Shown here one piece after another: positions 983 through 30,547 of a DNA stretch of 64,000 bases. Made by a program: the position numbers and the translations under genes. Each line of letters starts with the position of its first letter. Position 1 is the stretch's first letter. The stretch comes from an uncultured Anaerolineales bacterium (GTDB taxonomy: Bacteria; Chloroflexota; Anaerolineae; B4-G1; SLSP01). The stretch lies in NCBI GenBank assembly GCA_964388385.1, contig CAYMAQ010000001.1, positions 20,607 through 84,606 on the forward strand, given 5' to 3'. The notes under the pieces are model-generated. The model did not search any database, had not been told where the DNA came from, and saw only the letters and a list, made by a program, of their open reading frames with translations.

Positions 983-1124
983 ACTTGACCTCCAGGGAAC
1001 TGCTCCGGAAAGATGATGAGGACCCAACCACTACGTGGGGCCAGGATAAGTGACCCCACGTCCTGTAAGGGCACGCCCCTGCGCTCGTACGTCGTCACCG
1101 ATAATCGAAACGGATTCACATATC

Positions 1125-2171: not shown

Positions 2172-2299
2172 ATCGATATCGCGCTCCAAGCCTGTCCCAC
2201 ACGAATGTACGGGATGGGCTTTTTGTGTTGGAATCTTTCTGTCTGAATCCAGAAAACCGCGTTACGCACCTTTATGTTGATATAGTCAGGAGTCGATTA

Positions 2300-8142: not shown

Positions 8143-10254
8143 ATGCAAACCTTGACCACAAACAAAAGATCCACATCCAGCTTCGTATTTTATCCGAGAT
8201 GCGGTAACATACACCCCGTGAAACCCAGACAGAGACCTTGGTTGTGGTGGGCAAGCGTGATCACGCTCCTGCTGCTAATATTTGGACTTCGAACCTACGG
8301 GCTTTTACAGACTCCCCCGGGGCTTACCCACGATGAAGCCAGCAACGGGCACGACAGCAACGCCATACTTTCAGGTGTTCACCGGCTCTATTTTCCAGTT
8401 GGCTACGGCCACGAACCGCTATATAACTACTCGGTAGCTCTGATGACACACTTCCTGGGTCAAAGTATCTACACACTTCGGATAACGACAGTATTCTGGA
8501 GCTTGGCCCAGGTCACAGTCACGACTGCATTAGCCAGACGCTGGTGGGGACGTAAGGCAGCTCTAGGCGTCTTGGCTGCTTACACCGTGAGTTTTTGGGC
8601 GTTGATGATGAGTAGAATCGGCCTTCGCGCGCCCACACTCCCGGCTGTCCTGGCGGCGTCCATACTGACCTTCGATCGATCGCTCACTGCGACCCAAAAG
8701 CGGCTCACCGCCGTGATTGCCGGGGTCTTGCTGGGCCTGGGATTCTATACTTATATGGCAAGCCGAGGGACTCCGCTCCTCTACGTCGGATTCCTATTGA
8801 TATTGCTTCTCCTGGATCGAACCGCGTTCAAACAAGCGTGGCAACCGACGATGATAGTCCTGCTCACTGCTGTACTCGTCGGCATGCCTCTCTTTCTCTT
8901 GTTGCGCGCCCATCCGGCACTGGAGTCCCGCATCGAGCAGCTGGGTGGCGCCCTCAAAGCACTTCAGAACGGGGACTGGGGGCCCTTGATCGAAAACATC
9001 AGAGCCAACGCCCCTATGCTCTTCTGGACGGCAGACCCCCGTTGGCTCTACAATATTGCCGGTCGACCGCTTTTGGAACCGCTGCTGGTCGGGCTTTTTC
9101 TGCTGGGCCTCGGCGCCGCGCTTAGCAAATTGCGATCCCGTCGCACGATTCTGACTTTACTCTGGCTCGGGGTTGGGCTTGCCCCGGCATGGGTCGTCCC
9201 AATCGAATACAATACACTTCACGCCATCGCCGCGATGCCTCCGATCTTTCTACTGATTGGCCTGGGTTTCCGTACGTTAACGCAGATACGCATAGGCCTT
9301 GTGCGCATTGGAATGGCTTTGCTCTTAGGCGTGGGATTCGGGATAACAGCTGTCCGCACGACGCACGCCTATTTTGTCACCTGGAGCACACAACGTGACG
9401 TGCGGGTGGCTTACCACCACCACGTGGTCGCACTGGGAAGACATCTTAATCGACAGGAGCCACAATCCCCCGTCGTCATCACCAGCCTTTATCCCGGCGA
9501 GTACCATGATCCCTACACGATGGAGGTCACGTTGGAACGCCAGGACCTCAACCTGCGCTGGTGTGATGCACGCTACGCCCTTATGGTACCCCAAGCCCCG
9601 GCGCGCTTGTACATCGAAGAGCAGACGGTGCCGCATGAGGTCTTTGACGCTCTCCTCGCAGAAAAGACTCAACATATCACAACGCTGAATTTTGACGCGG
9701 ATGCCATTCCTTCGCAGATTCGGGGATATCGATGGGAAAGTGATCGAGCGTGGGACGACCTTCGCGCCGTCCTGGGCACGGACGTTCGAGCCCTAAACGG
9801 AGATCCACCGCCCAACGTGCCGCATCCGGTCCTCACCTCCCCCATCGACTTTGGGAACACGGTCGCGTTCATAGGATATGCAGCCCACACGGTTACAGGG
9901 ACGACCGCATCTCTGGAATTGATGACAGCCTGGGAAGTCAAATCCCCCCCGGAGCAGCGAATATGGATGTTCAGTCACCTTTTATCTCCTACGGGTGAGT
10001 TACTCGATCAGGTCGACCGCCTAGATGCACCCGCTTGGCAGTGGCGGGAAGGGGATCGTTTCGTTCAGCGGCATCAACTACAAGTGCCAGAGAGCGAATC
10101 CTGCAGCGCATGTAGTATTGCCGTAGGATTCTACATCCCTTCGACACTGACCCGGTTACCCGTGCAAGCAGACACCGTGACTTCGCTTGAAGGCCCACCC
10201 CCCACGCGCATTCTGATTCCTTATCCCCAGGCGTCAGGACAGAAGGCACCATGA
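8143..10254 (+). CDS. GT-C fold polytopic glycosyltransferase (ArnT/PMT-like, GT39/GT83-type) with C-terminal soluble module
   Basis: More than 10 predicted TM helices. First periplasmic loop carries the Asp-Glu motif (LTHDEASNG...GHEPLY). No RBS, so the start is uncertain. Confidence 0.75.
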   Translation: MQTLTTNKRSTSSFVFYPRCGNIHPVKPRQRPWLWWASVITLLLLIFGLRTYGLLQTPPGLTHDEASNGHDSNAILSGVHRLYFPVGYGHEPLYNYSVALMTHFLGQSIYTLRITTVFWSLAQVTVTTALARRWWGRKAALGVLAAYTVSFWALMMSRIGLRAPTLPAVLAASILTFDRSLTATQKRLTAVIAGVLLGLGFYTYMASRGTPLLYVGFLLILLLLDRTAFKQAWQPTMIVLLTAVLVGMPLFLLLRAHPALESRIEQLGGALKALQNGDWGPLIENIRANAPMLFWTADPRWLYNIAGRPLLEPLLVGLFLLGLGAALSKLRSRRTILTLLWLGVGLAPAWVVPIEYNTLHAIAAMPPIFLLIGLGFRTLTQIRIGLVRIGMALLLGVGFGITAVRTTHAYFVTWSTQRDVRVAYHHHVVALGRHLNRQEPQSPVVITSLYPGEYHDPYTMEVTLERQDLNLRWCDARYALMVPQAPARLYIEEQTVPHEVFDALLAEKTQHITTLNFDADAIPSQIRGYRWESDRAWDDLRAVLGTDVRALNGDPPPNVPHPVLTSPIDFGNTVAFIGYAAHTVTGTTASLELMTAWEVKSPPEQRIWMFSHLLSPTGELLDQVDRLDAPAWQWREGDRFVQRHQLQVPESESCSACSIAVGFYIPSTLTRLPVQADTVTSLEGPPPTRILIPYPQASGQKAP

Positions 10255-12242
10255 CCTGCGGGATCAAGACTCGTGAGCGTTGGGCCCTGCTTGCCACTCT
10301 GCTGATCGCTTGGACCGCACGATGGGTGGCGTTGATGGATGTCCCACCGGGATGGCGGGATGACGACCTCATCGAGCTCTACACGTTTTCCAAGGAAATT
10401 CTCGAATCTGGCCCGCAGCTCTACTTTACGGGGGCTTCAGGACACGAACCCCTTTATCACACGATTCGAGCACCCTTGATCGCGGTTGCTGGTTTGAACC
10501 AAGCCTCGGCCCGCTGGCTCGCGGCTTCTGCCGGAATGCTCTCTGTATTGCTGACGTGGGCAGTAGGTCGCCAACTCTTCGGGGGTCGTGCAGCTCTCGG
10601 GGCGGCGGCTTCGTTATCCGTCTCCTTCTGGAATCTGATGTACAGCCGCGTGGCCATCCGGCATATCGGCGCCCTGCCCTGGATGCTGGTGGCGATCTAT
10701 TGGGCCTGGCGTGAATTGGACGATCAACCTCAAACCCTAACCCCGCTGATAGGCATAGCTGTGGGAACCGCCGGCGCCGTGCTCACCTATTACGCCGGTC
10801 GATTGATACCGGCGCTGCTTCTGGCCTTTTTGCCTGTCCTATGGATCAACATCCGCCGCTGGCCTCGTTTTCTGACCGCACTCGGCGTCGGTCTGGCTTT
10901 GACCGGGCCGATGTTCATCGCATCGGCCCAGGCTCCCGGTGCAGATGCCCGCGTCAGCGAACTTGCCGGCCCCTTGTACGCCCTCGCCGAGGGTAACGCT
11001 GCCCCCTTTATTCAAACGACGCTGACCACATTGAGTATGTTTCACGCGACGGGAGATCCCGAGTGGCTCTACAATATCAGTGGACGACCCGTTTTCGGTA
11101 CGTTTGGAGCCGTGCTTTTTTTCGCCGCGCTGTTTTTCCACGCCATCACTATGGGCCAACGCAGATCTCGCTTTCTTCTCCTGTGGCTCCTGGTAGGATT
11201 GGCCCCGGCATTTATCAGTTTCCCACCCTCCAGTTACGGACATACTGTGCTGGCTATGCCCGCAGTCTACCTCATCCTGGCCCGAGTTATCGCATTAGGG
11301 CACAAATATGGCCCTCGGGGCTATAGGCAGAGCCTGGCCTTTATTCTGACCTTGGCTTCCGTGGCTTCAGTTGGCGGACGCGATCTTCCTGATTACTTTG
11401 TTGAGTGGGGAAATCACAGCATGGTGGAGTTTTTATATCGGGCGGATTATCGGGCGCTTGCGCAGCATCTCGACGCCCACGACGAGATCGAGGATGCGGT
11501 GGTAGGAAGTATGCTATTGGGCCCCTGGGATAGACTCGCGGTACGGACCGACCTCAAACGAGAGAAGCCGACTCTGCGATGGATCAATCCGACGAGATCC
11601 TTGGTGCTTACATCTGACGCCGCCACGCGGCTCTATCTCCAACACGAGGGACAGCGTCATCCTGCTATCGAGGACTATCTGCTGGATGCGCCCCCTGCCC
11701 CAGCACCGGAGGGTATGGAGGGATTCCTCATATCCCAATCCATTGTACGGCTTAAACAGCCATATCTTGAGGAGGGTTGTGACGGGAACCCACTGATCGA
11801 TCAGCCCTTCGAGAGTACACTGGCACTCAGTGCCGTTGAGATCGACGATGACGCGGATACGGAGAAGATGACGCTCAAACTCTGGTGGATGATCAAAGAT
11901 CCGCTTCCGTTGCCGCTCAAGGAGCTAATCCCCCACCCGCCGCCACCGGGTGTCTACAGTGGACCGCGACTGAAGGTCTTCGTGCACAGCACCAGGGCAG
12001 ACAGCGAAATCCAGCTCGATGTAGACGATGGAATAGGCGTCGATCCTTATACCCTCAGCGTGGGGGATCTTTGGCTACAAGTTCACAGCCTTGAGAAATC
12101 CGAGGGCCAACGAATCCGCATTGGACTCTACGATCCAAAAAGTGGCGCGCGATGGAGATTGGCTGATGGAGGTGATATGATCTGGATCTGCCCTCATCAA
12201 GCAGGACGTAAATCGGTTCAAAGCCGCCTCAGCGGAGATTGA
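10251..12242 (+). CDS. GT-C fold polytopic glycosyltransferase, tandem paralogue of 8143..10254
   Basis: ATGA overlap with the upstream gene. Same DD/DE...GHEPLY loop motif, many TM helices and the related C-terminal module. Confidence 0.75.
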   Translation: MTCGIKTRERWALLATLLIAWTARWVALMDVPPGWRDDDLIELYTFSKEILESGPQLYFTGASGHEPLYHTIRAPLIAVAGLNQASARWLAASAGMLSVLLTWAVGRQLFGGRAALGAAASLSVSFWNLMYSRVAIRHIGALPWMLVAIYWAWRELDDQPQTLTPLIGIAVGTAGAVLTYYAGRLIPALLLAFLPVLWINIRRWPRFLTALGVGLALTGPMFIASAQAPGADARVSELAGPLYALAEGNAAPFIQTTLTTLSMFHATGDPEWLYNISGRPVFGTFGAVLFFAALFFHAITMGQRRSRFLLLWLLVGLAPAFISFPPSSYGHTVLAMPAVYLILARVIALGHKYGPRGYRQSLAFILTLASVASVGGRDLPDYFVEWGNHSMVEFLYRADYRALAQHLDAHDEIEDAVVGSMLLGPWDRLAVRTDLKREKPTLRWINPTRSLVLTSDAATRLYLQHEGQRHPAIEDYLLDAPPAPAPEGMEGFLISQSIVRLKQPYLEEGCDGNPLIDQPFESTLALSAVEIDDDADTEKMTLKLWWMIKDPLPLPLKELIPHPPPPGVYSGPRLKVFVHSTRADSEIQLDVDDGIGVDPYTLSVGDLWLQVHSLEKSEGQRIRIGLYDPKSGARWRLADGGDMIWICPHQAGRKSVQSRLSGD

Positions 12243-16208: not shown

Positions 16209-16236
16209 ATAATACAATGACCTGAAAGATTGTCAA
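16209..16236 (-). promoter_or_regulatory. sigma70-like promoter for rpsU (TTGACA-16-TATTAT)
   Basis: Minus strand reads TTGACAatctttcaggtcattgTATTAT. The 5' UTR that follows contains a 7-bp hairpin CCGACACgtgGTGTCGG. Confidence 0.4.
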
Positions 16237-16334: not shown

Positions 16335-18344
16335 TTATTGAGGAGCGGGCCAATCATAGACGATGGCAAGGAGACGCCCGTCCGGAGAGTGTAGAGATGT
16401 CCGGGTGCCCTGAGGATAAACCGATTCAATCCACGACAAATCGTCAATCCGATAGGATGTCACAACGAATCGCGCAGGCAGTATGACGGAGGACGGTCTC
16501 TGGTCGGGCAAGACATCCTCACCAGGTATACCGCGCGCCAGAAACTGCAACCCGCCAAACTCCCAGTAAAGCGATGGTGCCCCCAAGAAGTAGACGCGCC
16601 CTTCGCATATCCGGGAAGGACCTTGAGTGCAAACCGGGCTAGGATTCTCGCGCAGGTAACGACCGATAGCGGTCGCGACCTCCGAGGTGGGATTGCCGTA
16701 AACTCGGCGTGGCGTATAGACTGCAAAGTAAAATCCAACATTGAGAATGACGATCGCGGTAAGAATTCCGTAAACAAGCCATCGGTGTATAGATGTCTTC
16801 AGGGTGAGAGCGCGCAGCACTTCCCGCAGGCCCCACGCGACTAACACAGAGACGACAGGCATCAACAATAACCCTCGTTGACTGCTGGGCGGGTTCTCCG
16901 TGATTCCCCACGCCGTCAGGACAGTCGTAACAAACCATAAAAGCATCAGACCGCGACTGGGCCATCGCGCGCGCAAAACCGCAGCGCTTATGCCGATCAA
17001 TAACAACCCACTGGTGACAAAGTCAAGCAACGGACGCCCGGGGCGATACCAGAAGGTCGGATCGGGTGTCAGATGAAAAGCGGTGAAAGCCCTCCAAAGC
17101 TGCTGTCCCATCAAAAAGACTGCGCTGCGCCCCGTCAAAACTTGCTCTCGACTCAACCACCCGGAGGAGAAGATCGATACGGCTTGATATCGTTCGGTGA
17201 GCGCAGATGGATGGACCTGATACCATCCTAAAAGCGGCAAAAGCGCAATCAACCCACCGACAATTAACAGACCTACGGCGTGGCGATGCCGGTAAAGAAA
17301 AGCGGGATCCACCAACATCCGCCACAACAAAAAGAGACCCATCAAGATCGTGACCCAGCGTGCGCCAAAGTATCCGTACCACCCCAGGCCCGCAACGACC
17401 CCAGCCAACCCCCAAGCTGCCCTCCTTAGCCTCCTATCGTCACCAGCATCGTACCCCAACCATAGGAGTCCAAATGCCAGCGCGCCAACCCACGGATCCG
17501 CGATCTGGTTGGAAGCCAAACGGCTATAGTGAATGTGATAGGCCGAGACAGCCAGCACAATAGCACTCCACCAGCCGATACGCCGCCCTCCCACCATGCG
17601 ACCCAAAAAGAAAGTCAGAACGACCGTCGTTACGCCCATGATAACTGAAAGCGCACGGCCCCCCGCAATAGTCGCGCCAAGGATGCGCATCACCAGCCCA
17701 TAAGCAAAGAAAGACATCGTTGGCACGGAGTACCATCCGGTTGCGAAAGGATTACCCAGGGGTTTGTTCAGCAGATCAAGGCCGATAACAAGCTGAGTAC
17801 CCTCGTCGCCTCCAAGATTGTAGGGAATACGACCAAGCCGCACGCCCCTTAGCGCAGCCGCAACCGCGATCAGGAGGATCAAAGCGCCCCACTCCCAACG
17901 GAGCATAGGAGGATGAATGGCAGATGCGCGCAGTAGCGAGATGAGAAGGGGGAGGATGTAAACGCCAATACCGACGATCCAGATCAACAAAGGAACGACG
18001 TAGCTTCCATTGTCGGTAACCGAACGCGCCAAGACCATCGCCAGCGCAGAGGCGATCAGAGCGAAGACACGGAGCCAGCCCTCCAAGGTATGGGGAAACC
18101 AGCCGAGACAGAGGCGTCTGACAGCGGGCGGAAGCCTACACTTCCAGTAGCGGCGCATAATGGAGAGGAGCGTAATAAAGGACAAGCCGAGGATGAGGAA
18201 CGCATCCCAAACGTAAACCCCCAATGAGAGCAAGAGGGTCGCCCCGAACAGTGCCAACAACGCTACAGCAGAGACGATTTGCCTCGAAAATTCCCCGCGT
18301 CTCACGTTCCTCTCACCCACGATCCTATGCTCGTTCGGCGCCAC
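16335..18344 (-). CDS. GT-C fold glycosyltransferase (PMT_2/ArnT-like)
   Basis: YNLGGDEGTQL loop motif and more than 10 TM helices. GTG at 18344; start uncertain. Confidence 0.75.
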   Translation of the reverse strand: MAPNEHRIVGERNVRRGEFSRQIVSAVALLALFGATLLLSLGVYVWDAFLILGLSFITLLSIMRRYWKCRLPPAVRRLCLGWFPHTLEGWLRVFALIASALAMVLARSVTDNGSYVVPLLIWIVGIGVYILPLLISLLRASAIHPPMLRWEWGALILLIAVAAALRGVRLGRIPYNLGGDEGTQLVIGLDLLNKPLGNPFATGWYSVPTMSFFAYGLVMRILGATIAGGRALSVIMGVTTVVLTFFLGRMVGGRRIGWWSAIVLAVSAYHIHYSRLASNQIADPWVGALAFGLLWLGYDAGDDRRLRRAAWGLAGVVAGLGWYGYFGARWVTILMGLFLLWRMLVDPAFLYRHRHAVGLLIVGGLIALLPLLGWYQVHPSALTERYQAVSIFSSGWLSREQVLTGRSAVFLMGQQLWRAFTAFHLTPDPTFWYRPGRPLLDFVTSGLLLIGISAAVLRARWPSRGLMLLWFVTTVLTAWGITENPPSSQRGLLLMPVVSVLVAWGLREVLRALTLKTSIHRWLVYGILTAIVILNVGFYFAVYTPRRVYGNPTSEVATAIGRYLRENPSPVCTQGPSRICEGRVYFLGAPSLYWEFGGLQFLARGIPGEDVLPDQRPSSVILPARFVVTSYRIDDLSWIESVYPQGTRTSLHSPDGRLLAIVYDWPAPQ

Positions 18345-18362: not shown

Positions 18363-19241
18363 TCAATCCAAACACAGTGAGGCGACCCGTTTCGCAACCC
18401 GGCGCGCATTCTGTCGCAAGAGGCCCAGAAGCGCCGAACCTCGGACGGGTACGGCTAAAATCGCATCGAGCACGCTGACGGCATAGAGCAAATAGCTGCC
18501 ACCGGCAATGCTCTGTTCAAATCGCAACTGTTCTTGCCCAAGGATGCGAGCGACTTCCGCAGAAGATTTCCAGCCTTGAACGACCACCCGAGCCAATGCC
18601 TGCGCCTCCTCCGCGCTGAAACGGCCCGTCCACGTGAGCAGCGTGTCATTCCGGGCCAAGATGACCCCATCAGATCCGACCTCCCTAGCCAGAGCCTCCA
18701 TCAGCTTCTGGACCCGTTCGCGATTTGCATTGAATGCGTCGAGGGAGAATTGTGGTTTCGCCTGTGATTCTGGCTCATCGGTCAAATCTTGAACCACAGG
18801 AGTTATCGCTCTGGAAACAGAGACGCTTTCAACCGGACCAGAACCAGGTGCGATGGGTTCAACCAAATCGGGGGCATCAGCACCCAGCGGTGCAGAAAAT
18901 GCCTCTTCGATCCGCGCCGGAAGTTCCGGAAGGAAAAACGGTTTGGGAAGAATACCTTGTACCGAAAGCGCCGCGACATCCTTCGGAAGCGCCTCCCCAT
19001 CCAGCGGAATAATTATCAGCCGCATCGCCGCATCATAGGAACGGAGGGCCCGCCCAACCCTGACCACCTGGGACGTACCCAACCCCATATCGAGGAAAGT
19101 TATATCAGGACAGTTGGTCTCTGCAGCCGCAAGCGCTTTCTGCCCATCAGCTGCGATGTCACCGCTGTAACCAAGACGTTTCAACTCATCGGATAATAAT
19201 GTTGCAAACGAAACGTTTGGATCCACGACAAGAAAATGCAT
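18363..19241 (-). CDS. response-regulator receiver fused to Roadblock/LC7 (MglB-like) domain
   Basis: N-terminal FLVVDPN...DITFLDMGLG receiver-like segment, apparently partly degenerate. C-terminal GSDGVILARNDTLLTW...GGSYLLYAVSV is Roadblock-like. ATG 19241 with GAGGAG RBS, 19 bp upstream of the GT-C gene. Confidence 0.6.
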   Translation of the reverse strand: MHFLVVDPNVSFATLLSDELKRLGYSGDIAADGQKALAAAETNCPDITFLDMGLGTSQVVRVGRALRSYDAAMRLIIIPLDGEALPKDVAALSVQGILPKPFFLPELPARIEEAFSAPLGADAPDLVEPIAPGSGPVESVSVSRAITPVVQDLTDEPESQAKPQFSLDAFNANRERVQKLMEALAREVGSDGVILARNDTLLTWTGRFSAEEAQALARVVVQGWKSSAEVARILGQEQLRFEQSIAGGSYLLYAVSVLDAILAVPVRGSALLGLLRQNARRVAKRVASLCLD

Positions 19242-19419
19242 CTGATCTCCTCGGTAAAGCACATGGCAGCAAACCAAATCCAGCGCTCTGTTCCTGTATT
19301 GTACGGGTTGGTAAAAATTTGGCAATAGGCCGACACGCTACAATCCGGCTGATGTCCCCGCAATCGTCAGATGACGGCCAACTGGACAATCCTCGCCGAA
19401 TAGTGGTAGAATACGGCCT

Positions 19420-21531
19420 ATGAATACACTCAGACCTCAACGGAATCGAATCAATCGTCAGATCCTAACACTTAGCGCCGTCCTTGCAGCACTGCTTTTC
19501 GGTGCACTTACGCATCGTTGGCTCGTACGTGCTGATAACGTGGTGGTTTTGCCATCAGTGATCGAAGCCAATGGAAGTATGGGAACGTGCTACAGTTTTT
19601 ATAAGCTCGAGGACAGTCAGAAGCCTCTGTCGACGGAAGCCTATGCGGCCGGTTCCCGGTGGGACCGCTTTGATTTCCGATGGAACGTAATTGAACCCAC
19701 AAAGGGGCAATTCTCGTTCGGCCCTCACGAGGAATTGGTCGACCGGAACCGGAACAACGGCCTTGAAGTCGTCGCGATCCTTGGCTCGACGGCGGAGTGG
19801 GCCTCGGGAAATTGCTCAAGTCGCTTGCAACAGACCCGGACGGACACGCTGCCGCAGGGGCACCCTCCCCCGCCGCAAAGCCCAGATGACGACATCTGGT
19901 GGCGCCCCTGCCCCCCTATCAATCTCCATCTGCCCTGGAATCACCCTGAAAATTACTGGGGACGATACGTCTACCAAACAGTCGAGCATTTCAAGGACAA
20001 GATCAACGTCTGGGAGATCTGGAACGAACCTGACCTACAATCCTTCTGGGCCAGCTCACCTGCGGACTATGCCCGGCTGCTCCAGGTCGGATACCAGGCC
20101 GTAAAGGCCGCAGATCCTGAGGCAACCGTGCTCTTTGGGGGGCTAGCGTACTGGGCGGATCCAAACTTCTATAAGCAGACCCTCCGGGAAATCCAGACGC
20201 TGGAGGGCGCCGTGGAGAACAACAGCTACTTCGATGTGCTTTCGCTTCACGCATACAGCAATATCTACCTGCTGCGACCGGTCGTCTCCGAAATTCAGAC
20301 GGAGATGATGACAACCGTCGGTCCGCATCCTATTTGGCTCACCGAGACCGGCGTGCCCATATGGGGCGAAAGCCAGCAGCCCTATCCTTATTCAAACTCG
20401 GCCACCGCGGAAGAAGCCGCCGCCTACATCATCGAAGCATATGCAGAGGCTCGTGCTGCCGGCGTTGAAAAATTCTTCGTCTTCCGCACCCATGACGAAG
20501 CGATGGGGGAGGCCTTCGGCTTGATTCGCAACGACCGTAGCCTGCGACCGGGTTACGTGGCCTATCAGGTAGCAGCCCGCTACCTGCAGGGAGAGAATCA
20601 GATCACCGGACCGTTCTCCGATGGTACCGTACGCCGCATCACCTTTTGGGGCACGCCCCAAGGCCGGATCGACGTGCTCTGGAAGGAGACGGGCGGAGAT
20701 GCAGTTCAATATCCACACCCCGCCATTGTCCCAACCGCCACGCTTATTGATCATCGCGGGCAAAGTCGGGCCCTAAATCCAACAGAAAGGACGTATACAG
20801 TGCCACTCCAACCGGCAACGGCGAATACCGGTGCCGGGGGCGCAACTATCATCGGCGGTCCGCCGGTCCTGCTGATCCAATCCGATCCGGAGCCCCCCTC
20901 CTCAGCGCTCCAACCGCTTTCTGCTGCAGTCTATACCACGGCCCTAACCCTTACGTGGAAGGTAACCGATACGGTCTCCGGCTATTGGTATGCGCAGGTC
21001 GAACAGGCACCCACATCCAATGGTCCGTGGACTTTGATCGCCGACTGGAGTGACACCAGGGGTGTAACGCACACCATCGTGAGGATCCCCTTGCATCAAC
21101 AGACATATTTCCGTGCTCGGGCCCGGAATAATGTCGGCAATTGGGAGCCGTGGCCCGCGACCGCCGAGACATGGACCACGGCCTATCTGACTCGCACGGT
21201 CAGTCTTTCACTCACAACCTATCTCGATGAAAACAGCAACAATGTATGGGATCCAGAGGAGACGCGCCCCCTCACCCCACCCGTTTTAAATTGGCGTTCT
21301 CGGGGTAGCACGGTCATCTCAGAGACCTTCGGAGTCTCGTGGCGGATCACCCAGACGGTGAGAACCGGTCCGCACATTTTGGAGGCGCAACTGCCACAGT
21401 ATCTCTACAGTCAAACTCCCTTCTTCGTCGCAGAACAACCGCTTACTCAGTCTTTTACAATGACGGTAGGACTGAAGCCCATTGGGGCGCGAAGCTATCT
21501 GCCCGTCGTCACCCGCAACGCAAACCCTTAG
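19420..21531 (+). CDS. secreted/anchored clan GH-A glycoside hydrolase (GH5/GH39-like) with Fn3 domain
   Basis: N-terminal signal anchor. WEIWNEPD (acid/base) and WLTETG (nucleophile) motifs, followed by an Fn3-like segment. The ATG sits right after a TGgTAGAAT promoter, so it looks leaderless. Confidence 0.7.
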   Translation: MNTLRPQRNRINRQILTLSAVLAALLFGALTHRWLVRADNVVVLPSVIEANGSMGTCYSFYKLEDSQKPLSTEAYAAGSRWDRFDFRWNVIEPTKGQFSFGPHEELVDRNRNNGLEVVAILGSTAEWASGNCSSRLQQTRTDTLPQGHPPPPQSPDDDIWWRPCPPINLHLPWNHPENYWGRYVYQTVEHFKDKINVWEIWNEPDLQSFWASSPADYARLLQVGYQAVKAADPEATVLFGGLAYWADPNFYKQTLREIQTLEGAVENNSYFDVLSLHAYSNIYLLRPVVSEIQTEMMTTVGPHPIWLTETGVPIWGESQQPYPYSNSATAEEAAAYIIEAYAEARAAGVEKFFVFRTHDEAMGEAFGLIRNDRSLRPGYVAYQVAARYLQGENQITGPFSDGTVRRITFWGTPQGRIDVLWKETGGDAVQYPHPAIVPTATLIDHRGQSRALNPTERTYTVPLQPATANTGAGGATIIGGPPVLLIQSDPEPPSSALQPLSAAVYTTALTLTWKVTDTVSGYWYAQVEQAPTSNGPWTLIADWSDTRGVTHTIVRIPLHQQTYFRARARNNVGNWEPWPATAETWTTAYLTRTVSLSLTTYLDENSNNVWDPEETRPLTPPVLNWRSRGSTVISETFGVSWRITQTVRTGPHILEAQLPQYLYSQTPFFVAEQPLTQSFTMTVGLKPIGARSYLPVVTRNANP

Positions 21532-21534
21532 GCC

Positions 21535-22851
21535 ATGGCACGGCGTGTGCTCGTCGGGTTAGTCGTGTGTCTTTTGCTGATAACGGGCCTATCGGGGGAT
21601 AGCGTGCTTACCCCACACCTCGACTGGATCGGGGAGGCAGCCACCCAAATCCGTGAGGGACGCTACACATCGGCAGAGACTGTCTACAAGCGTGCTATGG
21701 AACGAACACCTGAGGACGCCGGGCCTGCGTTGTATCTCGCTAGGCTCTATGCCGAATGGGGACAGCCCCAGCGTGGCTTGATAGCGGTGGACGAGGCCGT
21801 AGATCGTGGCGCCCAAGAGGATCTTGTAAGACCGCTCCGTTTTGATCTTTTGGCCCAGACCGAGCGCTGGACACAACTACGTTTCGAAGCTCGCCAACAG
21901 CTCTCACACGTGCCGACCGACCCAAAGGCCTGGCAAGCTCTGACAATAGCAGCGCTGCACCAAGGAGATTGTGCCGCAGCCACCGAGTCCGTGATCGGCT
22001 GGATCAACACAGAGTCATCTCGACCAGCGGAGGCGCTGTATTTTCTGGCGGTACTCTCGGCAGATCCAGACCGACTCGCCAGATTTGCACCCGAACTCCA
22101 CCAAAGGGCCTTTGTGTGTGGTGAGGTTTCACCCAGCTGTATAGGACACGCCCTCGTGCGCCAAGGATTCTGGGCGCACGCCATCTGCCCACTGCGTCAA
22201 GCCATTCGCCTGGACCCCCAGGACTCCGGAAGCCACGCATGGCTCGGTGAGGCGCTGACCCGCAACGATCTCCACGCGGAGGCCGAATCCCACTTACTTG
22301 AGGCCGTCCGCTTGGCGCCCAACGACCCACTCCCCTGGCTGCTCCTGGGAAAGCACTACCTCAATCTTGGCGAGACGAGCGCCGCGCGCAGGTCCCTTCT
22401 CAACGCACAGGCACTCGACCCGGCTAACCCGGCCCCCTGTCTGGCGATCGCGGAACTCAAAGCGCAGGCGAGTGCTTACGAAGAGATACAGACCTGGGCC
22501 GACGCAGCCCTGGAGCGAGCGCCCGACGACGCCGAGGTCTGGAAAGCTGTCGCCAGGCTCTACCTGGAGCGAAACCTAATCACGGACCGTTACCCCCTTT
22601 GGGCTGCAGAGGGTGCCGTCCGAATGGAGCCCGAAGATGGAGAGGCTCATATGCTGTTAGGGTGGGCCCATCTTCAATCAGAACGAACACAGGACGCGTT
22701 ACTGACACTCAAAAAGTCGACGGAGCTCGCGCCATACTCCGGTGAAGCTCATTTTTGGCTCGCACAGGCGCTGGAGGCTTCCGGTAGCGCCGAACAAGCC
22801 GAACAGGCACTGACACGAGCCGCCAATCTCGGTTATATCTCAGGCCGTTAA
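21535..22851 (+). CDS. secreted TPR-repeat protein
   Basis: Signal peptide followed by multiple 34-aa TPR-like repeats. Lies 4 nt after the GH gene. Confidence 0.7.
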   Translation: MARRVLVGLVVCLLLITGLSGDSVLTPHLDWIGEAATQIREGRYTSAETVYKRAMERTPEDAGPALYLARLYAEWGQPQRGLIAVDEAVDRGAQEDLVRPLRFDLLAQTERWTQLRFEARQQLSHVPTDPKAWQALTIAALHQGDCAAATESVIGWINTESSRPAEALYFLAVLSADPDRLARFAPELHQRAFVCGEVSPSCIGHALVRQGFWAHAICPLRQAIRLDPQDSGSHAWLGEALTRNDLHAEAESHLLEAVRLAPNDPLPWLLLGKHYLNLGETSAARRSLLNAQALDPANPAPCLAIAELKAQASAYEEIQTWADAALERAPDDAEVWKAVARLYLERNLITDRYPLWAAEGAVRMEPEDGEAHMLLGWAHLQSERTQDALLTLKKSTELAPYSGEAHFWLAQALEASGSAEQAEQALTRAANLGYISGR

Positions 22852-22855
22852 CCCA

Positions 22856-23938
22856 TCATCGTAGCGGTATGCTATTCGGCGGGATGCGTTCCGCGCGATA
22901 TGTTCCCCAGCCGCTGGGCAGCAACTCAACGTCCCATACGATCTCGCCCTCTGATGTGACCTCCACGTAGCGTGTTGTATCCCCTTCCGTCCGGGTGCCG
23001 AATGCAATCAGGGTATTGCCGTTGGATAGACGGTCTGCATCGCCCCAGATAGGACAGAAGAGATCCGGAGTATGGCGGTAGCTCCAGACAGCCTCAGCCG
23101 TCATCGCATCTTCATCGATCCGCAGCTCCAAAGCCCGTGTAAACTCGCCACCTTGGGATTCTGGGCGGTGCGTCCCGTTATCATAAAGAAGAATATTGCC
23201 GTTGGGTTGGAGTTCGGGTGAGTGCTGGTGATAGAAAAGATCCAACGGGTCCATATCAAAGTCGCCACCGACGCCCAGTCGCCACAGGATCTCCCCGGTC
23301 TGCCGACTGATTTTAAGAAGCTGATTCATATTCCGGCAGGAGATAATGAGCGCCCTATCCTTCAGATCCGGTTCGATCGTGTTCGTATGGCTGTAGTCAC
23401 GCCGATCCATCTCAGGCTGGTGATGATCAAAGAGATGCCAATTCCAGACCATCGTATGGGTCCTCGGATCCCACTCGACGATCTGATCGCCAACCAGGGT
23501 TTCGCCGCCGTAGGTCTCGAATCTGCGCGGGTCATCAAGTAGAAACATAAAGGTTCCATCCGGTGTCAGGTGAATGTGATGATGGTTAATCATAGGGCTC
23601 TCCCATAACAAATCCCCCTTCCAACTGACCAAGGCCGGATGCACACGAGCAATGCCCTCGTGAATGTTCGTCCCGCCGATAAGCACACCTCTCTTCGTAG
23701 TTCGGCTGTCGACGTCGCCGCGGAGGTCCGGGGCGTTTGCGGTCTGTCCCCACCAGAGCCTATCGTCAGACCGCTTATGTGACCAGACGATCTCACCCTG
23801 CGGATTCAGAATCGCCACCATGATGGGTGCACCCAGATTATGATTGGAAAAATTGACCAGGGTGAGGCCGGGCTGCATTTTTTCCTCGCGACAGACGTGC
23901 ACCTCGATCTCGGGCCAAAGGGCTTTATCACCCACCAT
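22856..23938 (-). CDS. arylsulfotransferase (ASST)-like beta-propeller protein, no signal peptide
   Basis: ASST/PQQ-propeller-like repeats (HHxHL, NGNxLxxDNG). ATG 23938 with AAAGGAG RBS. Confidence 0.55.
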   Translation of the reverse strand: MVGDKALWPEIEVHVCREEKMQPGLTLVNFSNHNLGAPIMVAILNPQGEIVWSHKRSDDRLWWGQTANAPDLRGDVDSRTTKRGVLIGGTNIHEGIARVHPALVSWKGDLLWESPMINHHHIHLTPDGTFMFLLDDPRRFETYGGETLVGDQIVEWDPRTHTMVWNWHLFDHHQPEMDRRDYSHTNTIEPDLKDRALIISCRNMNQLLKISRQTGEILWRLGVGGDFDMDPLDLFYHQHSPELQPNGNILLYDNGTHRPESQGGEFTRALELRIDEDAMTAEAVWSYRHTPDLFCPIWGDADRLSNGNTLIAFGTRTEGDTTRYVEVTSEGEIVWDVELLPSGWGTYRAERIPPNSIPLR

Positions 23939-23984
23939 ACCCATCTCCTTTCGCTGAATCCCCACGACGAGACATCCTACCCGG

Positions 23985-24141: not shown

Positions 24142-27100
24142 TCAGGGGACCGTAATCTCACCGAGCAAGACAGCGTCGGTGCCGTCGGCGAGACGGAGAC
24201 GTTCTCCGCTCTCGTCATACATCCCAACGCGAAAATGATAAGTTCCATCCTTGACACCCTCGGGCACAATGAGTGTGCGGGTTTCGATAATCACCTCACC
24301 CACGGCCCAACCGGGCGTAGGGCGCGTCCAATCGACCGGTTCTCCGTCACTCTGAGCTACAAGATGCCCCCCGTCGTCAACGAGATGGACAAAAACGCGA
24401 TACGGGATCGCGATCTCATCAAGCGCCTGCCAAGCGAGTTCAACCTCCAACGACGAGCCAGGAGTCACCGACTGCTGTGGAATTGAGTAGCCAGCCAGGC
24501 GGATGACAGAACCAAACACCCGATCTGCACTCGTCAAGGTCTCAGGAACCGTCCAGATTCGCTCCGGCGCCTGGACGTCAAGAGGGATCTCGGCCAACGG
24601 GTCGCAGGAGGGGAGCTGAACTTTGATCGCGTACTGCCCACTCTCCAGAGAACCGGGCAACCGCAGGGCAGGACATCCTATCCACCGGTCACCGCGGCGC
24701 CATTGGTCCGTCGGCCACTGTGCAGCAGATGGAGGTATCTCCCAACTCTGCATAATCGTGCCCTGATCATTCTCAAGAATGACGTTTACCCATTTCGCAT
24801 GAGTGGGTTGACGGCGCGCTTCCCACACCCAGCGCAGATGCAGCGATTCTCCCGGCGCTAACGAAGCGCGGTCGGGTTCCACCTGCCACAGGCCCAGGGC
24901 ACCACAAGCCCGAAGTTCTGCCTGGGGAGTGACCCCCAGATCATGCAAAGTCGGAGGCGTATCAGGCGGGGCCAGCTGAATCGGTGCCAAAGAGAGCGCC
25001 GGCCCGACAGGATTGCCGTCGATGCCGATGACCGAGGCCGGCTCCAACGTCTTGCGGTCGAACAAGGACAATGTCGGTGTATAGATCCCCGGAGGGATTC
25101 CAGCAGGAAGACCCACCAGCTTATCCATCCGCGCATAGCTGTTCGCAGGCCAGGCTTGAACAGGAGGTGGGGTGCGCCCCCATCGAGCGGGGCGCATCAA
25201 TGTCGGCCATGCATCGCCATCGGAGTCCTCCAGGGAAAGACCGGTGTGCCAGTCTCCATCCCCTGGATTGAGCGCGCTCCAGAACATCGTGAATTCCTGG
25301 GTGGTCCCAGAGGGCACCATACCCGTCAGCCCCTCCGCACCTATCAACATAGCGCGGTCCCCAAAATTGATCTGCATCGGCGTCTCCACGCCGCGAAGGC
25401 TACCATCCTCCTGCAGCCTGGTAGCACGCCAGAGCCACGGTTGTCGATCGACAACACCCACCTTCAGTAAGATCAAAGCCAGACCCACGACAGAAGTCGC
25501 AACCACCGCATGGCGTGGTGGTCCTCGCCAACCCGTGAAGGTCCCGCCCCTGGGAAGACCGAGGGTCAGACCGACGAGGCCTGCGAGACTGATCGCGGAG
25601 ATCGCGTCTGCAGCCAATCGCAGCGGCGTCTCGCCAAAGGCTATCTCAATCTCATGCGTGCCGGCCGGCACACGAAAGGTGAGTAACCCTGAACCCGACG
25701 CCGGGACCACCGGCACCCGCACACCGTCAATGAAGGCCTTCCAGCCCGGATAGTAGAGTGCAAGATAGCGAGCTGTAAATGATTCCGGGGAAGACAACCG
25801 GATCCTTGCCCGGAGAGCGTCATAGCGGGACGCGTGAATGACAGCGCCCTCAGGAAGAGCGGTGGAGGGCAACCGCACGACGGGACCGCTGGTCTCGTAA
25901 TCATCGAGGAGCGATGGGGCCTCTACAAGGCGCTCCGCCCAGATGGGCAAATATTCACCCTTGGCCGTTGTTCCAAGCGTATCTGTCGTATGCTCCCACC
26001 GGATCATCGAATCGACCGAGATTTCAGAAGGGGGCGAACAATGGTCAGGGAAAAACCAACCGAGATTGGCAAAAATGAGTACCACTATCCCGAGTACGGG
26101 CAATAAATCCGCGCTGACGTCGTACTTTTCTCGAAGCCACGTAGAACCCGCAGCGGTTCCGGCTCCGATCAAGAGTGAAAGGGAAAACGCAGCAGGGCCG
26201 AGATAACGCCAGGGGAATTGAACGTATGATAACAACAGCACCCGATCCCAAAGAAACTGGGAAGGCGCGAGGGTCAGTGCAGAAAAAAACAGAGCCAGAA
26301 AAACCAAGCTGCCGACGAATCCGCGCTCAGGCTTCTCAAGCTTGTGCCAGAAAACGATGGGGACCAATCCCAGGATTGCAGGCACCAAACCCAAGCTTTT
26401 TTGTGGCCAATCGTTGACAAGGTTAGGATCGGCGCGTCGGGGCAGCGCGAGCAGATGATCGAGGGGCAGGAAATTGTATCGATAGTCGAAGACCCATGTT
26501 CCCAGCAGTCGCCCCGTCTGGACATACGCCCGTTCGACCATGGGTGGCAGCCAAAAAAAGGCCGTGATCCCCAATCCTAACAAGCCGAACAACGCACCGC
26601 GCCCCACAGCATCCGGTTCTCGCATCTGTATGGCCAAAAGTACAACCCAAAGGATCAGCAACGGCGCAAAGAGAAAGGCGAAGAGGTGATGGCTCATCAC
26701 CATCGCCGCAAACGCGGCGGTACCGATCCATAGAGCGCGGCGATCTTTCAACCGAACCCAGCGATGGAGCCCCCAGAGCACCAGCGGGGGCCACGCCCAT
26801 GCAAAGGCTTCCCACAAGCTGCCTCGATTGAAGATGTCGTAGGCCTGAAACGGTGCGTAGACATAGGCAATCCCCGCAACCCAACCCGCCTCGCGACCAA
26901 AGAGTTCGCGGGCCAGCTTGACCATCGTAAGTCCACCGAGGACGACGCCGAGTGCGAAAACAGCATTCATCGAAACCGTCCACGCTGCCCCCATCTGATG
27001 CAGCAACGCAACCAACGAGGGCGGAAACGGCGAAGTAAAGAGATAAAGGGGAAAGCCCAGGCCGTGTGCCATCGCAGGCGCCCAACGTGAGTAGAGAACC

Positions 27101-27291
27101 CCCTGCTCCCACAGCGATGCGATCTGCACCGCACGCCAGAGATGAAAGATGTGATCGTATCCACATGCCAACGTGTCAACCAGCAAGGGCTGTAGAGCCG
27201 GAATGCTGAAAAGCAAGGGGACAACGAGGTCGAGGGCGCGATCCACGACCCGCATAACCCGAGGTGAGTTGGCGCGTCGAGACGTTATCAT
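24142..27291 (-). CDS. giant (1049 aa) GT-C-like polytopic membrane protein (YfhO/PTPS-related-like) with three tandem C-terminal beta-rich modules
   Basis: N-terminal region has about 12 TM helices with CGYDHIFHLWR. Then a periplasmic domain with YYPGWKAFIDG, one TM helix, and three ~120-aa repeats. ATG lies immediately after the upstream gene's TAA. Confidence 0.7.
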   Translation of the reverse strand: MITSRRANSPRVMRVVDRALDLVVPLLFSIPALQPLLVDTLACGYDHIFHLWRAVQIASLWEQGVLYSRWAPAMAHGLGFPLYLFTSPFPPSLVALLHQMGAAWTVSMNAVFALGVVLGGLTMVKLARELFGREAGWVAGIAYVYAPFQAYDIFNRGSLWEAFAWAWPPLVLWGLHRWVRLKDRRALWIGTAAFAAMVMSHHLFAFLFAPLLILWVVLLAIQMREPDAVGRGALFGLLGLGITAFFWLPPMVERAYVQTGRLLGTWVFDYRYNFLPLDHLLALPRRADPNLVNDWPQKSLGLVPAILGLVPIVFWHKLEKPERGFVGSLVFLALFFSALTLAPSQFLWDRVLLLSYVQFPWRYLGPAAFSLSLLIGAGTAAGSTWLREKYDVSADLLPVLGIVVLIFANLGWFFPDHCSPPSEISVDSMIRWEHTTDTLGTTAKGEYLPIWAERLVEAPSLLDDYETSGPVVRLPSTALPEGAVIHASRYDALRARIRLSSPESFTARYLALYYPGWKAFIDGVRVPVVPASGSGLLTFRVPAGTHEIEIAFGETPLRLAADAISAISLAGLVGLTLGLPRGGTFTGWRGPPRHAVVATSVVGLALILLKVGVVDRQPWLWRATRLQEDGSLRGVETPMQINFGDRAMLIGAEGLTGMVPSGTTQEFTMFWSALNPGDGDWHTGLSLEDSDGDAWPTLMRPARWGRTPPPVQAWPANSYARMDKLVGLPAGIPPGIYTPTLSLFDRKTLEPASVIGIDGNPVGPALSLAPIQLAPPDTPPTLHDLGVTPQAELRACGALGLWQVEPDRASLAPGESLHLRWVWEARRQPTHAKWVNVILENDQGTIMQSWEIPPSAAQWPTDQWRRGDRWIGCPALRLPGSLESGQYAIKVQLPSCDPLAEIPLDVQAPERIWTVPETLTSADRVFGSVIRLAGYSIPQQSVTPGSSLEVELAWQALDEIAIPYRVFVHLVDDGGHLVAQSDGEPVDWTRPTPGWAVGEVIIETRTLIVPEGVKDGTYHFRVGMYDESGERLRLADGTDAVLLGEITVP

Positions 27292-30200
27292 TTACTGACC
27301 CTCGACCGGTATTATTGTCTCCAGGATGACGCCGTCCCCACCGAGATTTGTCGCCAACCGCGTGCCGTCCTCGTGGTAAACCCCGACCCGGACTGTGTAG
27401 GCATCAGAGCCTGCACGGTCCGACACTTCCACAGACCGAGATTCTACAACCACCTCACCGACGGCCCATCCAGGGGTCGGTCGGCCCCAAGAAACGGGAA
27501 CCCCGTCGCTCTGATCAATCATCCGACCCTCGGCATCCAATAAATGGACGAAAATCCGATAGGACTTATCCAATTCAGTGACAGCCTGCCAAGCCAGCGA
27601 GACCGTCAGGGTCTCACCGCTATCGACACCAGCCGTATCCACACGATATCCGACCAATCGAATCCTGTCGCCGAAGAGGATATCCGTCGTAGTGAGACCG
27701 TCCGGCACCGTCCATCGCCGTTCCGGCGCCTCGACCCCCAAAGCCACCCGTGCCAATGGATCAGCACACCCCTCCAAGCGCGCCTCGAAGGTGTAAGATC
27801 CGGTTGCCAAACCGCCGGGCAGTCGGAGCACGTGTTGACCCAGCCACCGATCTCCAACTCGCCATCGATCCGTAGGCCACCAACTCGCGACCGGGGGAAG
27901 CAACCAGCTATCCAAAACCTCATCGTCTCGATCGGTCAAAGAGATCTCCGCCAAACGGACACGAGCCGGCGCTCCAGTCGCTTCCCACACCCACCGTACA
28001 GCCACAAGACCACCGGGAGCGGCACTTCCGCGGTCCAGGGTCATCGACCAAAGCGCGATCCCATCACACGCACTTGGGGGTTCGGGCGCGCTCACACCGA
28101 GATCAGACAAAGAAGGAGAGACTGCGGGACGGACGATCTCGATCTCACCGAGAACCAGTTCAGTGCCCAAGGGTTCACCCTGCGGACCGAATAGCGTCGC
28201 GGGCTCGAGGGTATCGCGGTCGAAGAGACCAACCACGACATCGTAGGTCCCGGGTGGCGTACCCGGCAGCGGCGACACAAGGTGCGGGTCAAAGACAAAC
28301 TCACCGGGTTGCCACATCATTGTGGGTGGTGGCGGCTCATATCCGCGAGGCCGCAGGGTTCCGGCGGGGCTCCAAGTGCGTCCCTCCCGTCCCACCAGGA
28401 GTATCGACGTTCTATACTCAGCAGAGGGAGTCGCCCGCGCGATCCAGAGCAGATCGATCCTGAGTTCATCGTCGGCGGTCACCAAATCGGTTTCAACCCG
28501 GGCACCGATCAAATCAAGTCCTACGTCGTAGACGTGTGCGACCGGCGTCAGTCCCTCCGGCATCCGTCCTGCGCCTAAGCGAGATATCGGAACTGCCGCC
28601 CCCGACCGCCCGATGAACAACCGCAGGATGGTTATCCCCGACACCACAGCAAGCCAAACTACCGTCATAGTGGGATCCACCCTAGTAGGAGCCATTCTCG
28701 ATACATCAAGAGGGGGGCTCTCGTTACGGCAAGCAGGCCAATGGCCCCAAAGCGAGGATCCGATCCAGCCTACTAGCCCAACAACCGTCATGGACAGAGC
28801 CAAACTGCGAGCGGTCGTCGCACCCAGCCAAACTTCCACCTCATAAGTGCCGGCAGGCACCGGAAATGTGAGAAATCCGGTATCCTCCTCCGGAGAGACA
28901 GAAACCGGCTTCCCATTGACAGATGCTTTCCAACCCGGAAAGTAAAGCCCTAACCAACGTGCCTGAAATGCCTGAGGGGTTGATAGAACTAGGGAAGCAC
29001 GCAGAGGTCGGTAAACAGACTCGTCGATGGTGACACCCTCTGGCAACGAGGCGGCATCCAGTCGTTCCGGCAGCTCCCCGCGGATAAAAGCTTCGGCTAA
29101 CTGAGTATCAGTGGGATGCGTTTCGACCCAGATTGGAAAATAACTGCTTTCTGGGTCGATCCCGATCCAGCCGGCACGCTCATATCGGTAGACATCCTCG
29201 ATCGTTGGATAAGGCTCCTCAGCACAGATACCTTTAGGTGGAAATGTTCGGGGCCAGGCCAGGATCGTCAAAGCGACGACCAGGGCGAGTGCGAAAACCC
29301 CGCGAACCCGTGAAGGTCTCACGGAAGAGTCACGTAAGGACAACGGAGACGCATCCTCTCCCACAACAGCCCCAGCCAACAAACTCACCGGCAGCAAAGC
29401 CCGCCCTACCAGACGCCACGGAAACTGCACGAAAGCCAGCAAGGGAAAGGCCTCCCACACACCTACCGAGGGCGCGGTCGCAAGCCAGAGATATCCGATC
29501 GCAACACACCCAAAGAGAGCCGCTACCCATCGTCTGGCAGACGTCCCGCCTCGCCACAGAATCCACCCCAGGCCCAAGAGACCCAACAAGCCGGGACCGA
29601 TCCCCAGCGGGACGCGCATCGGGGGATTAAGATAGTTGGGGTCGTGGCTCAAAGGCGGGGTAAGAAGTATCTCCCGCCACGTCAAAAAGTTGAAGTGAAA
29701 ATCGTTGTTGCGCGTTGTTCGTGAGAGATGCAGTTGAACGAAATGCTGTTCTGTGAGGGCCGGCAGCCAGAACCACGCAGCAACTAGAGTGGCCAGACCC
29801 ACCGCCAGGAATGCCCGCGGCCAATAACCCCGACGCCGGTGAATAATCGACAGCACAAGGGTATAAAGGCCGAGAAAGGGTGCAAGCAGAAGGGACGAGA
29901 TATTGTGACTCAAAAAGAGCCCGATCAACAGGGACGTGCTTGCGACAAATGCGCCGCGTTTCCCATAAAGAATAACACGTCGCACGCTCAAGAACAGCCA
30001 GGGGAGTATCGCCAGGGCCACAGACTCCGGCATGTTACCCCGTCTCAGCACATCCAAGAGCACATAGGGTCCCAGGCCATAGGCGACGCCCGCGACCCAC
30101 CCCGCCCACCCACCCCACAGATCGTCGGCCAGCGCTCCCGCACCGATCGCGCCGGCGAGAAGACTGATACCGTAAATCAGCCCCAAAACCAGGGGAATCG

Positions 30201-30477: not shown

Positions 30478-30547
30478 CAACAGGATTGTACCATGTTCCC
30501 GTGACCCGAAAACATTCGAACGGCCGCTGATGAAAAGCTGATCGCCG

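Follow-up and report, generated by a model that had tools for sequence, protein, structure and literature searches.

Which process is served by a phosphorylation-type receiver joined to a Roadblock domain, and is it that of the glycosyltransferase encoded next to it? This question is raised by a gene on the reverse strand (18363..19241) of a 64,000-nucleotide stretch of DNA from an uncultured Anaerolineales bacterium (contig CAYMAQ010000001.1 of assembly GCA_964388385.1), the whole of which is called here the window. A first-pass annotation had read its product as a partly degenerate receiver (REC) fused to an MglB/Roadblock-like domain, and had suggested that it could be a regulatory input to envelope glycosylation. 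We find that the fusion is real and that its output domain is specifically MglB-like. The reading that we prefer, tentatively and with somewhat less than even confidence, is that the protein, called here REC-MglB, is an orphan response regulator with an MglB-type Roadblock output instead of a DNA-binding domain, which would be phospho-switchable and would have an unlinked MglA-family GTPase module as partner.

The open reading frame (ORF) encodes 292 amino acids (aa) from an ATG codon, with a GAGGAG Shine-Dalgarno sequence 5 nt upstream, to a stop codon at 18363-18365. Its coordinates and start were correctly given in the first-pass annotation, this ATG being shared by all homologues, which have MHxLVVDPN as common N-terminus; a TTG at 19325 was rejected as the start because the homologues all begin at the same Met. 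A promoter-like site, TTGCCA-16-TACAAT (19298..19325, reverse strand), lies about 55 nt upstream of the start codon, with 10/12 consensus matches and as a pattern match only. Three contigs from microbial-mat metagenomes encode a protein identical to that of the window (P0001), beside the same neighbouring genes. The AlphaFold2 model had a mean predicted local distance difference test score (pLDDT) of 86.9, mostly above 90 in both domains, and a predicted template modelling score (pTM) of 0.49, which indicates no fixed packing between the receiver and the Roadblock domain. The two are joined by a disordered, Pro/Ala/Glu-rich linker (aa 119-165; 18747..18887, reverse strand; pLDDT below 50 for aa 124-158) that varies widely in length and sequence among homologues.

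The output domain occupies aa 166-292 (18366..18746, reverse strand) and was assigned to the MglB-type Roadblock/LC7 domains by a profile search, by structure and by conservation. Of the two Pfam families to which the first-pass annotation pointed, Response_reg scored above its cut-off, but Robl_LC7 (PF03259) did not match the window protein even at E<=1, and NCBIfam likewise gave no Roadblock match. This miss is due to the limited sensitivity of the Pfam model, also remarked on elsewhere (PMC4316618); the model weakly matched 6/35 homologues (best E 0.0024), and more distant REC-Roadblock relatives exceeded its cut-off of 23 with 28.5 and 40.2 bits. A profile of 130 positions was made from the C-terminal domains of 22 family members. 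Against PDB sequences, its sole significant matches were MglB of Myxococcus xanthus (E=7.9e-11) and MglB of Thermus thermophilus (E=4.3e-6), with alignments running end to end (profile positions 8-128 of 130) and including the LGLxRxR start of alpha3. In the model, the C-terminal half has the order alpha-beta-beta-alpha-beta-beta-beta-alpha (helices 174-188, 210-233 and 272-289; strands 192-197, 200-206, 242-247, 250-257 and 260-267; pLDDT mostly above 90), and Foldseek superposed it on the MglB chains 6izw, 6hjm, 6h5b, 3t1r and 1j3w with target template modelling (TM) scores of 0.79-0.88 and root-mean-square deviations of 1.7-2.9 Å. The Roadblock call is thus upheld despite the Robl_LC7 miss, an outcome that the first-pass annotation had listed as refuting it.

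Mean column identity in this domain is 59%, and its family-invariant residues cluster at the end of alpha2 (W224, S227, A231, L234, G235), on beta3 (R240-F241-E242-Q243-S244) and at the start of alpha3 (L272-G273, R276), with Y253 as a further invariant position. Several homologues bear COG-based names from JGI that already combine 'CheY-like' with predicted regulator of Ras-like GTPase activity (Roadblock/LC7/MglB family). The domain is nearer to true MglB than to a generic Roadblock domain.

The receiver spans aa 1-118 (18888..19241, reverse strand). It matched Response_reg (PF00072) over aa 4-111 with 34.8 bits against a cut-off of 30.2, as did 35/35 homologues tested, and the receiver half superposed on the MicA, PhoP and Spo0F receivers with target TM scores of 0.81-0.87. 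Its residues were assigned by alignment to Bacillus subtilis PhoP, CheY2 and YycF, and columns were counted over 81 species-level sequences. The phospho-acceptor D51 (CheY D57 slot; codon 19089-19091, reverse strand) was found in 80/80, and K100 (CheY K109 slot; 18942-18944, reverse strand), which sits within an invariant QG-x-LPKPFF-x-PEL motif, in 79/81 with Arg in the other 2. Of the acidic pair that holds Mg2+ (D12/D13), only the first residue is kept, as D7 (19221-19223, reverse strand; 79/81); the D13 slot is position 8, P8 in the window protein, where 45 of the 81 have P, 20 have S, 12 have A and none has an acidic residue. The residue after it, N9, is kept in 72/81 and might substitute for the missing acidic residue. 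Both switch residues are absent as well, the CheY T87 slot being P79 (19005-19007, reverse strand; Pro in 78/81) and the Y106 slot, position 97, being V, I or T. The degeneracy seen in the first-pass annotation is therefore real, and the acceptor Asp and Lys, whose conservation it had singled out for checking, are conserved. Since D7, D51 and K100 are near-invariant across an overall identity of 32-70%, the acceptor Asp and the Lys are under strong purifying selection. These data are consistent with a receiver that is atypical and lacks the usual Thr/aromatic switch, yet is probably still phosphorylatable.

A word-indexed search returned 134 relatives of the window protein, nearly all of them full length. 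Relatives occur in 132 GTDB species, and the locus counts, the clade split and the gene contexts given here refer to the best 80 of these, with one genome per species. All 80 loci come from Anaerolineae metagenome-assembled genomes (labelled Anaerolineales, Thermoflexales, Anaerolineae, Chloroflexia or Chloroflexota); the family appears to be restricted to this class. A hidden Markov model (HMM) search with the C-terminal domain reached 767 representatives at E<=1e-3. Among the 150 best of these, most are 250-430 aa long with the Roadblock domain at the C-terminus, and 10/10 distant relatives examined start with a receiver.

A neighbour-joining protein tree divides exactly by gene context. In 43/80 loci, tblastn with the window neighbours placed an orthologue of the adjacent GT-C glycosyltransferase gene next on the same strand, usually followed by rpsU-yqeY-pgpH-ybeY-dgkA; this arrangement holds in 43/43 assessable loci of the GT-C-linked clade (clade A), plus the window. 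One further locus, L048, groups with this clade and has too little downstream sequence to assess. In the sister clade, 26/80 loci (among L054-L090) have polA next on the same strand, directly in most (examples are L010 10001-13597 and L011 10001-13521); in most of them the two genes overlap by up to 4 nt or are separated by up to about 140 nt, and in three the gap exceeds 900 nt. Another 10/80 have neither gene or too short a sequence. Precomputed gene calls on six contigs gave the same two contexts, and the Roadblock domain is equally conserved in the two clades. We considered that the two sets of genes might be paralogues and have rejected this for now, since the best 80 loci include no two from one assembly and the division of the tree by context is clean. 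The GT-C adjacency is thus an ancestral trait of one large branch and is missing from the other.

We offer no explanation for a REC-MglB signalling gene as first cistron before polA. In this clade, a receiver-ParA/CbiA-type ATPase gene was called at L011 15795-16925, and ORFs resembling it, judged from their C-termini alone, lie at L050 3891-5045, L080 2178-3326 and L084 4657-5970, all no more than a few kb from the REC-MglB gene. A signal peptidase (Peptidase_S26) gene was called near the REC-MglB gene in both L010 and L011.

In the window, the GT-C gene (16335..18344, reverse strand) lies downstream of the REC-MglB gene and is co-directional with it, as first annotated, the gap being 18 nt from the first GTG and up to about 57 nt with a later GTG. 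Its 669-aa product is a PMT_2-type membrane glycosyltransferase (34.8 bits against a cut-off of 26.1) with about 11-12 hydrophobic segments and an acidic GGDEG motif (aa 178-182) that is invariant in 43/43 orthologues; phmmer found no homologue of it among PDB sequences. The 18-nt spacer contains no terminator-like site. After the promoter-like site upstream of the REC-MglB gene, the next one occurs only past the GT-C gene, before rpsU (TTGACA-16-TATTAT, 16209..16236, reverse strand; 11/12 consensus matches, again a pattern match only), which suggests that the unit ends there. The two genes probably form a co-transcribed two-gene unit. On the other side, a GH39-like gene (19420-21531, forward strand) and a TPR gene (21535-22851, forward strand), identified by Pfam and synteny, are divergent from the REC-MglB gene and are frequent, though not constant, neighbours in clade A. 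The whole clade-A block (TPR/GH39-like/REC-MglB/GT-C/rpsU/yqeY/pgpH/ybeY/dgkA) is syntenic, so the adjacency can be inherited gene order and need not reflect functional coupling. Because the sister clade has polA instead of the GT-C gene, a glycosylation link would be lineage-specific, not family-wide. Nothing in the REC-MglB protein itself points to glycosylation; a connection of this kind in the GT-C-linked branch may nevertheless be compatible with the context.

The surroundings were then considered as a source of partners. The MglA of M. xanthus, identical to PDB 6hjh_A, was used as phmmer query against all ORFs of at least 70 aa, and no MglA homologue was found at E<=1 in the window or in 91 loci (±8-10 kb, 1.27 Mb). 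The window has a single Walker A motif, which belongs to a helicase-like ORF of 984 aa, and encodes no small Walker-A protein; this agrees with the first-pass annotation, which saw no small GTPase. With the family HMM, each of these sources had one MglB-like ORF, the REC-MglB gene itself, and no second Roadblock gene. Across the 91 loci, no conserved kinase, GTPase or second Roadblock gene was found beside the family, and neither the window nor most of the loci have a histidine kinase adjoining the gene. A candidate cognate kinase was seen only at the locus of a divergent member (L091 9137-14953, forward strand), where two histidine-kinase-like ORFs (1171 and 679 aa) with HATPase-like C-termini lie directly downstream. 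Coupling of MglB to MglA has been defined as occurrence within four genes (PMC4316618); as no MglA lies within this distance, REC-MglB is an orphan MglB-family member by that criterion.

Among stand-alone proteins, the C-terminal domain has its nearest relatives in P0217 and P0224. Both are encoded in mglB-mglA operons, and one of these operons lies in a cluster with PatA_N (PATAN) and REC genes. Around the closest stand-alone MglB relative (L093 52-6534), the gene order is MglB, Arf/Ras-like GTPase, second Roadblock, REC-wHTH, PATAN, REC-PATAN and Arf-like GTPase. In Anaerolinea thermophila, a Group-5 MglA (ANT_06780) is encoded beside a PATAN gene with no coupled MglB, and the genome has a single orphan MglB-family gene, ANT_03760 (PMC4316618).

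The surface by which such a partner would be bound was compared with that of MglB. The MglB dimer binds MglA through its two-helix (alpha2) side, beta3 is the dimerisation strand, and Arg at A68/A72 of T. thermophilus MglB or at A64/G68 of the M. xanthus protein makes binding about tenfold weaker and reduces GTPase-activating protein (GAP) activity (PMC3199381). Both PDB alignments place the A64/A68 and G68/A72 equivalents at residues 225 and 229 of the window protein. At position 225, which follows the invariant W224, 45 sequences have R, 8 have Q, 5 have H and 5 have A, with K also found; six stand-alone MglB-like proteins have Ala or Ser there, and the two of them that were checked (P0217 and P0224) are both mglA-coupled. 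Position 229 is E or R in the family and E or Q in P0217 and P0224. Both positions were considered as evidence against MglA binding, and position 229 was dropped because the coupled proteins carry E/Q there, which leaves position 225 as the only informative interface position. Furthermore, an Asp conserved in coupled MglBs (D36; PMC4719450) has no equivalent in the REC-MglB family, where it falls in a deletion. This conservation pattern could reflect docking in another mode, for instance by a Group-5 GTPase, or an MglC-like loss of GTPase binding. The catalytic mechanism of Group-5 GTPases is thought to be unlike that of Group 1.

Relatives with other domain arrangements were also seen. In a third branch of the family (P0198, P0212, P0218, P0221, P0226, P0249, P0252 and P0256/P0266), with 31-41% identity in the REC-Roadblock core, this core is followed by a long disordered spacer and then, at the C-terminus, by an IS200-like Y1_Tnp domain (47-58 bits). 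The HUH motif of this domain is degenerate and its C-terminal Tyr is not conserved; it is probably catalytically dead. One such member is annotated as 'IS200/IS605 family transposase [Anaerolineales bacterium]', and in L092 the gene of this type (2069-3976, forward strand) has polA on its own strand, 7.7 kb further downstream. To have a Roadblock domain in the middle and a domesticated transposase-like domain as output seems unusual for a response regulator. In P0199 (423 aa; one member of its cluster is named Candidatus Zixiibacteriota), a receiver, a DUF4388/PatA_N (PATAN) domain and an MglB-like Roadblock domain are fused, joining three domain types that are otherwise neighbours of MglA genes.

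According to the mechanism that we prefer, an unlinked histidine kinase would phosphorylate D51 of the atypical receiver and this would, through the flexible linker, alter the way in which the Roadblock domain engages a partner encoded elsewhere in the genome. By analogy with MglB, that domain may form a homodimeric platform through alpha2 and beta3. The likeliest class of partner would be an MglA-family small GTPase module such as the Group-5 MglA/PATAN pair reported without an MglB of its own in A. thermophila; an unlinked MglA/PATAN module is the most plausible partner in view of the A. thermophila genes, the mglB-mglA operons of P0217 and P0224 and the REC-PATAN-Roadblock relative. A Ras-like GTPase or polarity-type module would thereby come under two-component control, as may be compared with the separate RomR, MglC and MglB of Myxococcus. 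In the GT-C-linked branch, the REC-MglB gene would be the first cistron of a two-gene unit, a lineage-specific context and not the defining function of the family. A bolder version, in which REC-MglB would be the missing regulator of the Group-5 MglA/PATAN module and place the GTPase under kinase control, GT-C co-transcription would tie this polarity or growth-zone switch to the site at which the envelope of the filament is glycosylated, and the polA-linked and pseudo-Y1-linked branches would be rewired outputs, is a long shot.

Several observations weigh against the preferred mechanism. No MglA homologue was found near the gene. In a profile search with the polA-linked clade, none of the 565 clusters at E<=1e-20 is named Anaerolinea, which leaves ANT_03760 as no more than a candidate member of the family. 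The small residue of the docking patch is replaced in most members, and D36 has no counterpart. With neither the second acidic nor the Thr/Ser switch residue, phosphorylation of the receiver may be non-standard. Finally, where relatives carry the Roadblock domain between the receiver and another domain, it may be a mere dimerisation module.

Some of the same data speak for a GTPase-independent adaptor, in which the Roadblock domain would not bind MglA, as in MglC, and its output would be dimerisation or scaffolding for another Roadblock or an unrelated partner, or the pairing of two receivers. The orphan context in all 92 sources, the bulky W224-R/K225 at the A64/A68 equivalent and the missing D36 all point in this direction. 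So do the polar R-F-E-Q-S, invariant on what is in MglB the dimerisation strand (PMC3199381), and the use of the REC-Roadblock core as an internal module before the degenerate Y1-transposase-like domain. There is also a precedent in MglC, a paralogue of MglB in which both MglA binding and GAP activity were lost (PMC4719450). However, no PDB sequence is nearer to this one than true MglB, no chain named MglC was matched there at E<=10, the F-D-I signature of the MglC beta1-beta2 turn is not conserved, and a single interface position discriminates, the G68 equivalent being E/Q in coupled MglBs too. We hold such an adaptor to be possible, if on the unlikely side. A constitutive structural or scaffold protein could also result from a pseudo-receiver, that is, an N-terminal domain that is never phosphorylated; 2/5 canonical active-site residues are lost (P/S/A in the D13 slot and, in 78/81, Pro in the T87 slot), V, I or T fills the aromatic switch slot, and an adjoining histidine kinase is lacking in the window and in most loci. 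This seems improbable given that D51, K100 and D7 are essentially invariant across 32-70% identity, that N9 (72/81) may compensate, and that the L091 member has its two histidine-kinase-like ORFs directly downstream.

The proposal of the first-pass annotation, that the protein is an input to envelope glycosylation, can be put more strictly: once phosphorylated, REC-MglB would bind or localise the adjacent GT-C enzyme, or a complex of it, by its Roadblock domain and so tune glycosylation. The operon-like pair behind this idea stands, with a terminator-free 18-nt spacer, promoter-like sites that bracket just these two genes, and an adjacency that is kept in all 43 assessable clade-A loci even where the upstream GH39-like gene was lost. 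Within the surrounding 30 kb there are many GT-C-type genes (three PMT_2, YfhO, PTPS_related), along with Wzy_C and epimerase genes. What does not stand is the extension to the family, since sister-clade orthologues lie directly before polA in 26 loci with no GT-C gene nearby, while the C-terminal domain is equally conserved in both clades; moreover, synteny down to dgkA means that the adjacency may be inherited order. No case is known to us in which a Roadblock domain acts on an enzyme of the GT-C type, and we think it very doubtful that REC-MglB is a dedicated regulator of this one. The neighbouring glycosyltransferase is not to be assumed a target on adjacency.

The density of GT-C-type membrane proteins in the window is unusually high (8143-12242, forward strand; 16335-18344, 24142-30597 and 36921-38402, reverse strand). 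The set comprises three PMT_2 paralogues, one of them just under the Pfam cut-off, a 1049-aa YfhO-like protein and a 1101-aa PTPS_related protein; in the same region, Wzy_C ligase/polymerase-like, NAD-dependent epimerase, GH39-like and arylsulfotransferase-like (22856-23965) genes are interleaved with housekeeping genes. The window also encodes a stand-alone canonical receiver (575-1027, reverse strand; 150 aa, Response_reg 71.6 bits) with a normal DD pair and no adjoining kinase seen.

The REC-MglB architecture has already been noted, in the literature of 2014 and in COG-based annotation, and no experimental study of it is reported in the literature searched. The names 'response regulator' and 'response regulator transcription factor' are incomplete or wrong for these proteins, since the output is an MglB-type Roadblock domain. 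If the preferred mechanism is true, the family would give access to the way in which two-component signalling is connected to small-GTPase or Roadblock modules in a large class of filamentous bacteria that is little studied and for the most part uncultured. As most Anaerolineae are non-motile filaments, the cellular role probably differs from that of the Myxococcus polarity module.

Among known systems, five proteins with a receiver and an MglB-like C-terminus, found with MglB as BLAST query, share the REC-MglB architecture; they were not analysed further in that study, which also noted Response_reg plus Robl_LC7 architectures in Pfam, and they may or may not belong to the Anaerolineae family (Wuichet & Sogaard-Andersen 2014, PMC4316618). 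The archaeal REC-NitrOD3 regulators (Galperin et al. 2018, PMC5847659) likewise join a receiver to an output that HHpred relates to Roadblock/LC7; they are a separate, thaumarchaeal family, set beside REC-MglB by description and not by sequence. Two-component-type proteins are also coupled to Roadblock in the conservons of Streptomyces (CvnA kinase-like, CvnB Roadblock, CvnC, CvnD GTPase; PMC4316618, PMC9739842), but these are separate proteins of one operon that includes the GTPase, whereas REC-MglB is a fusion with no linked kinase or GTPase. MglB of M. xanthus and T. thermophilus, the GAP of MglA, resembles the C-terminal 127 aa of REC-MglB in its Roadblock fold with an extra alpha3 and LGLxRxR start; REC-MglB differs in its fusion behind a receiver and a disordered linker, the absence of mglA within four genes, the altered docking patch and the lack of D36. 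MglC is marked by a conserved Asp beside the invariant Gly of the beta1-beta2 turn, F25-D26-x-I28 (PMC4719450). REC-MglB, also an orphan, does not belong to the MglC family, as its turn is variable (NDT, GGG, DDE, EGG and others), and the C-terminal profile matched no PDB chain named MglC.

The closest functional analogy is with RomR/MglC/MglB. RomR consists of a receiver, an intrinsically disordered region and a Glu-rich alpha-helical C-terminus, through which it binds the Roadblock protein MglC, itself a binding partner of MglB (PMC10329633). REC-MglB has the receiver and the disordered region but a Roadblock domain in place of the Glu-rich C-terminus, and is not of the RomR family; RomX, RomY and MglA were not detected near its gene. 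Receiver, disordered linker and Roadblock domain are held in one chain, Rosetta-stone-like, and if the preferred mechanism is true, REC-MglB would combine in a single natural chain the receiver-Roadblock interplay for which Myxococcus uses the separate proteins RomR, MglC and MglB.

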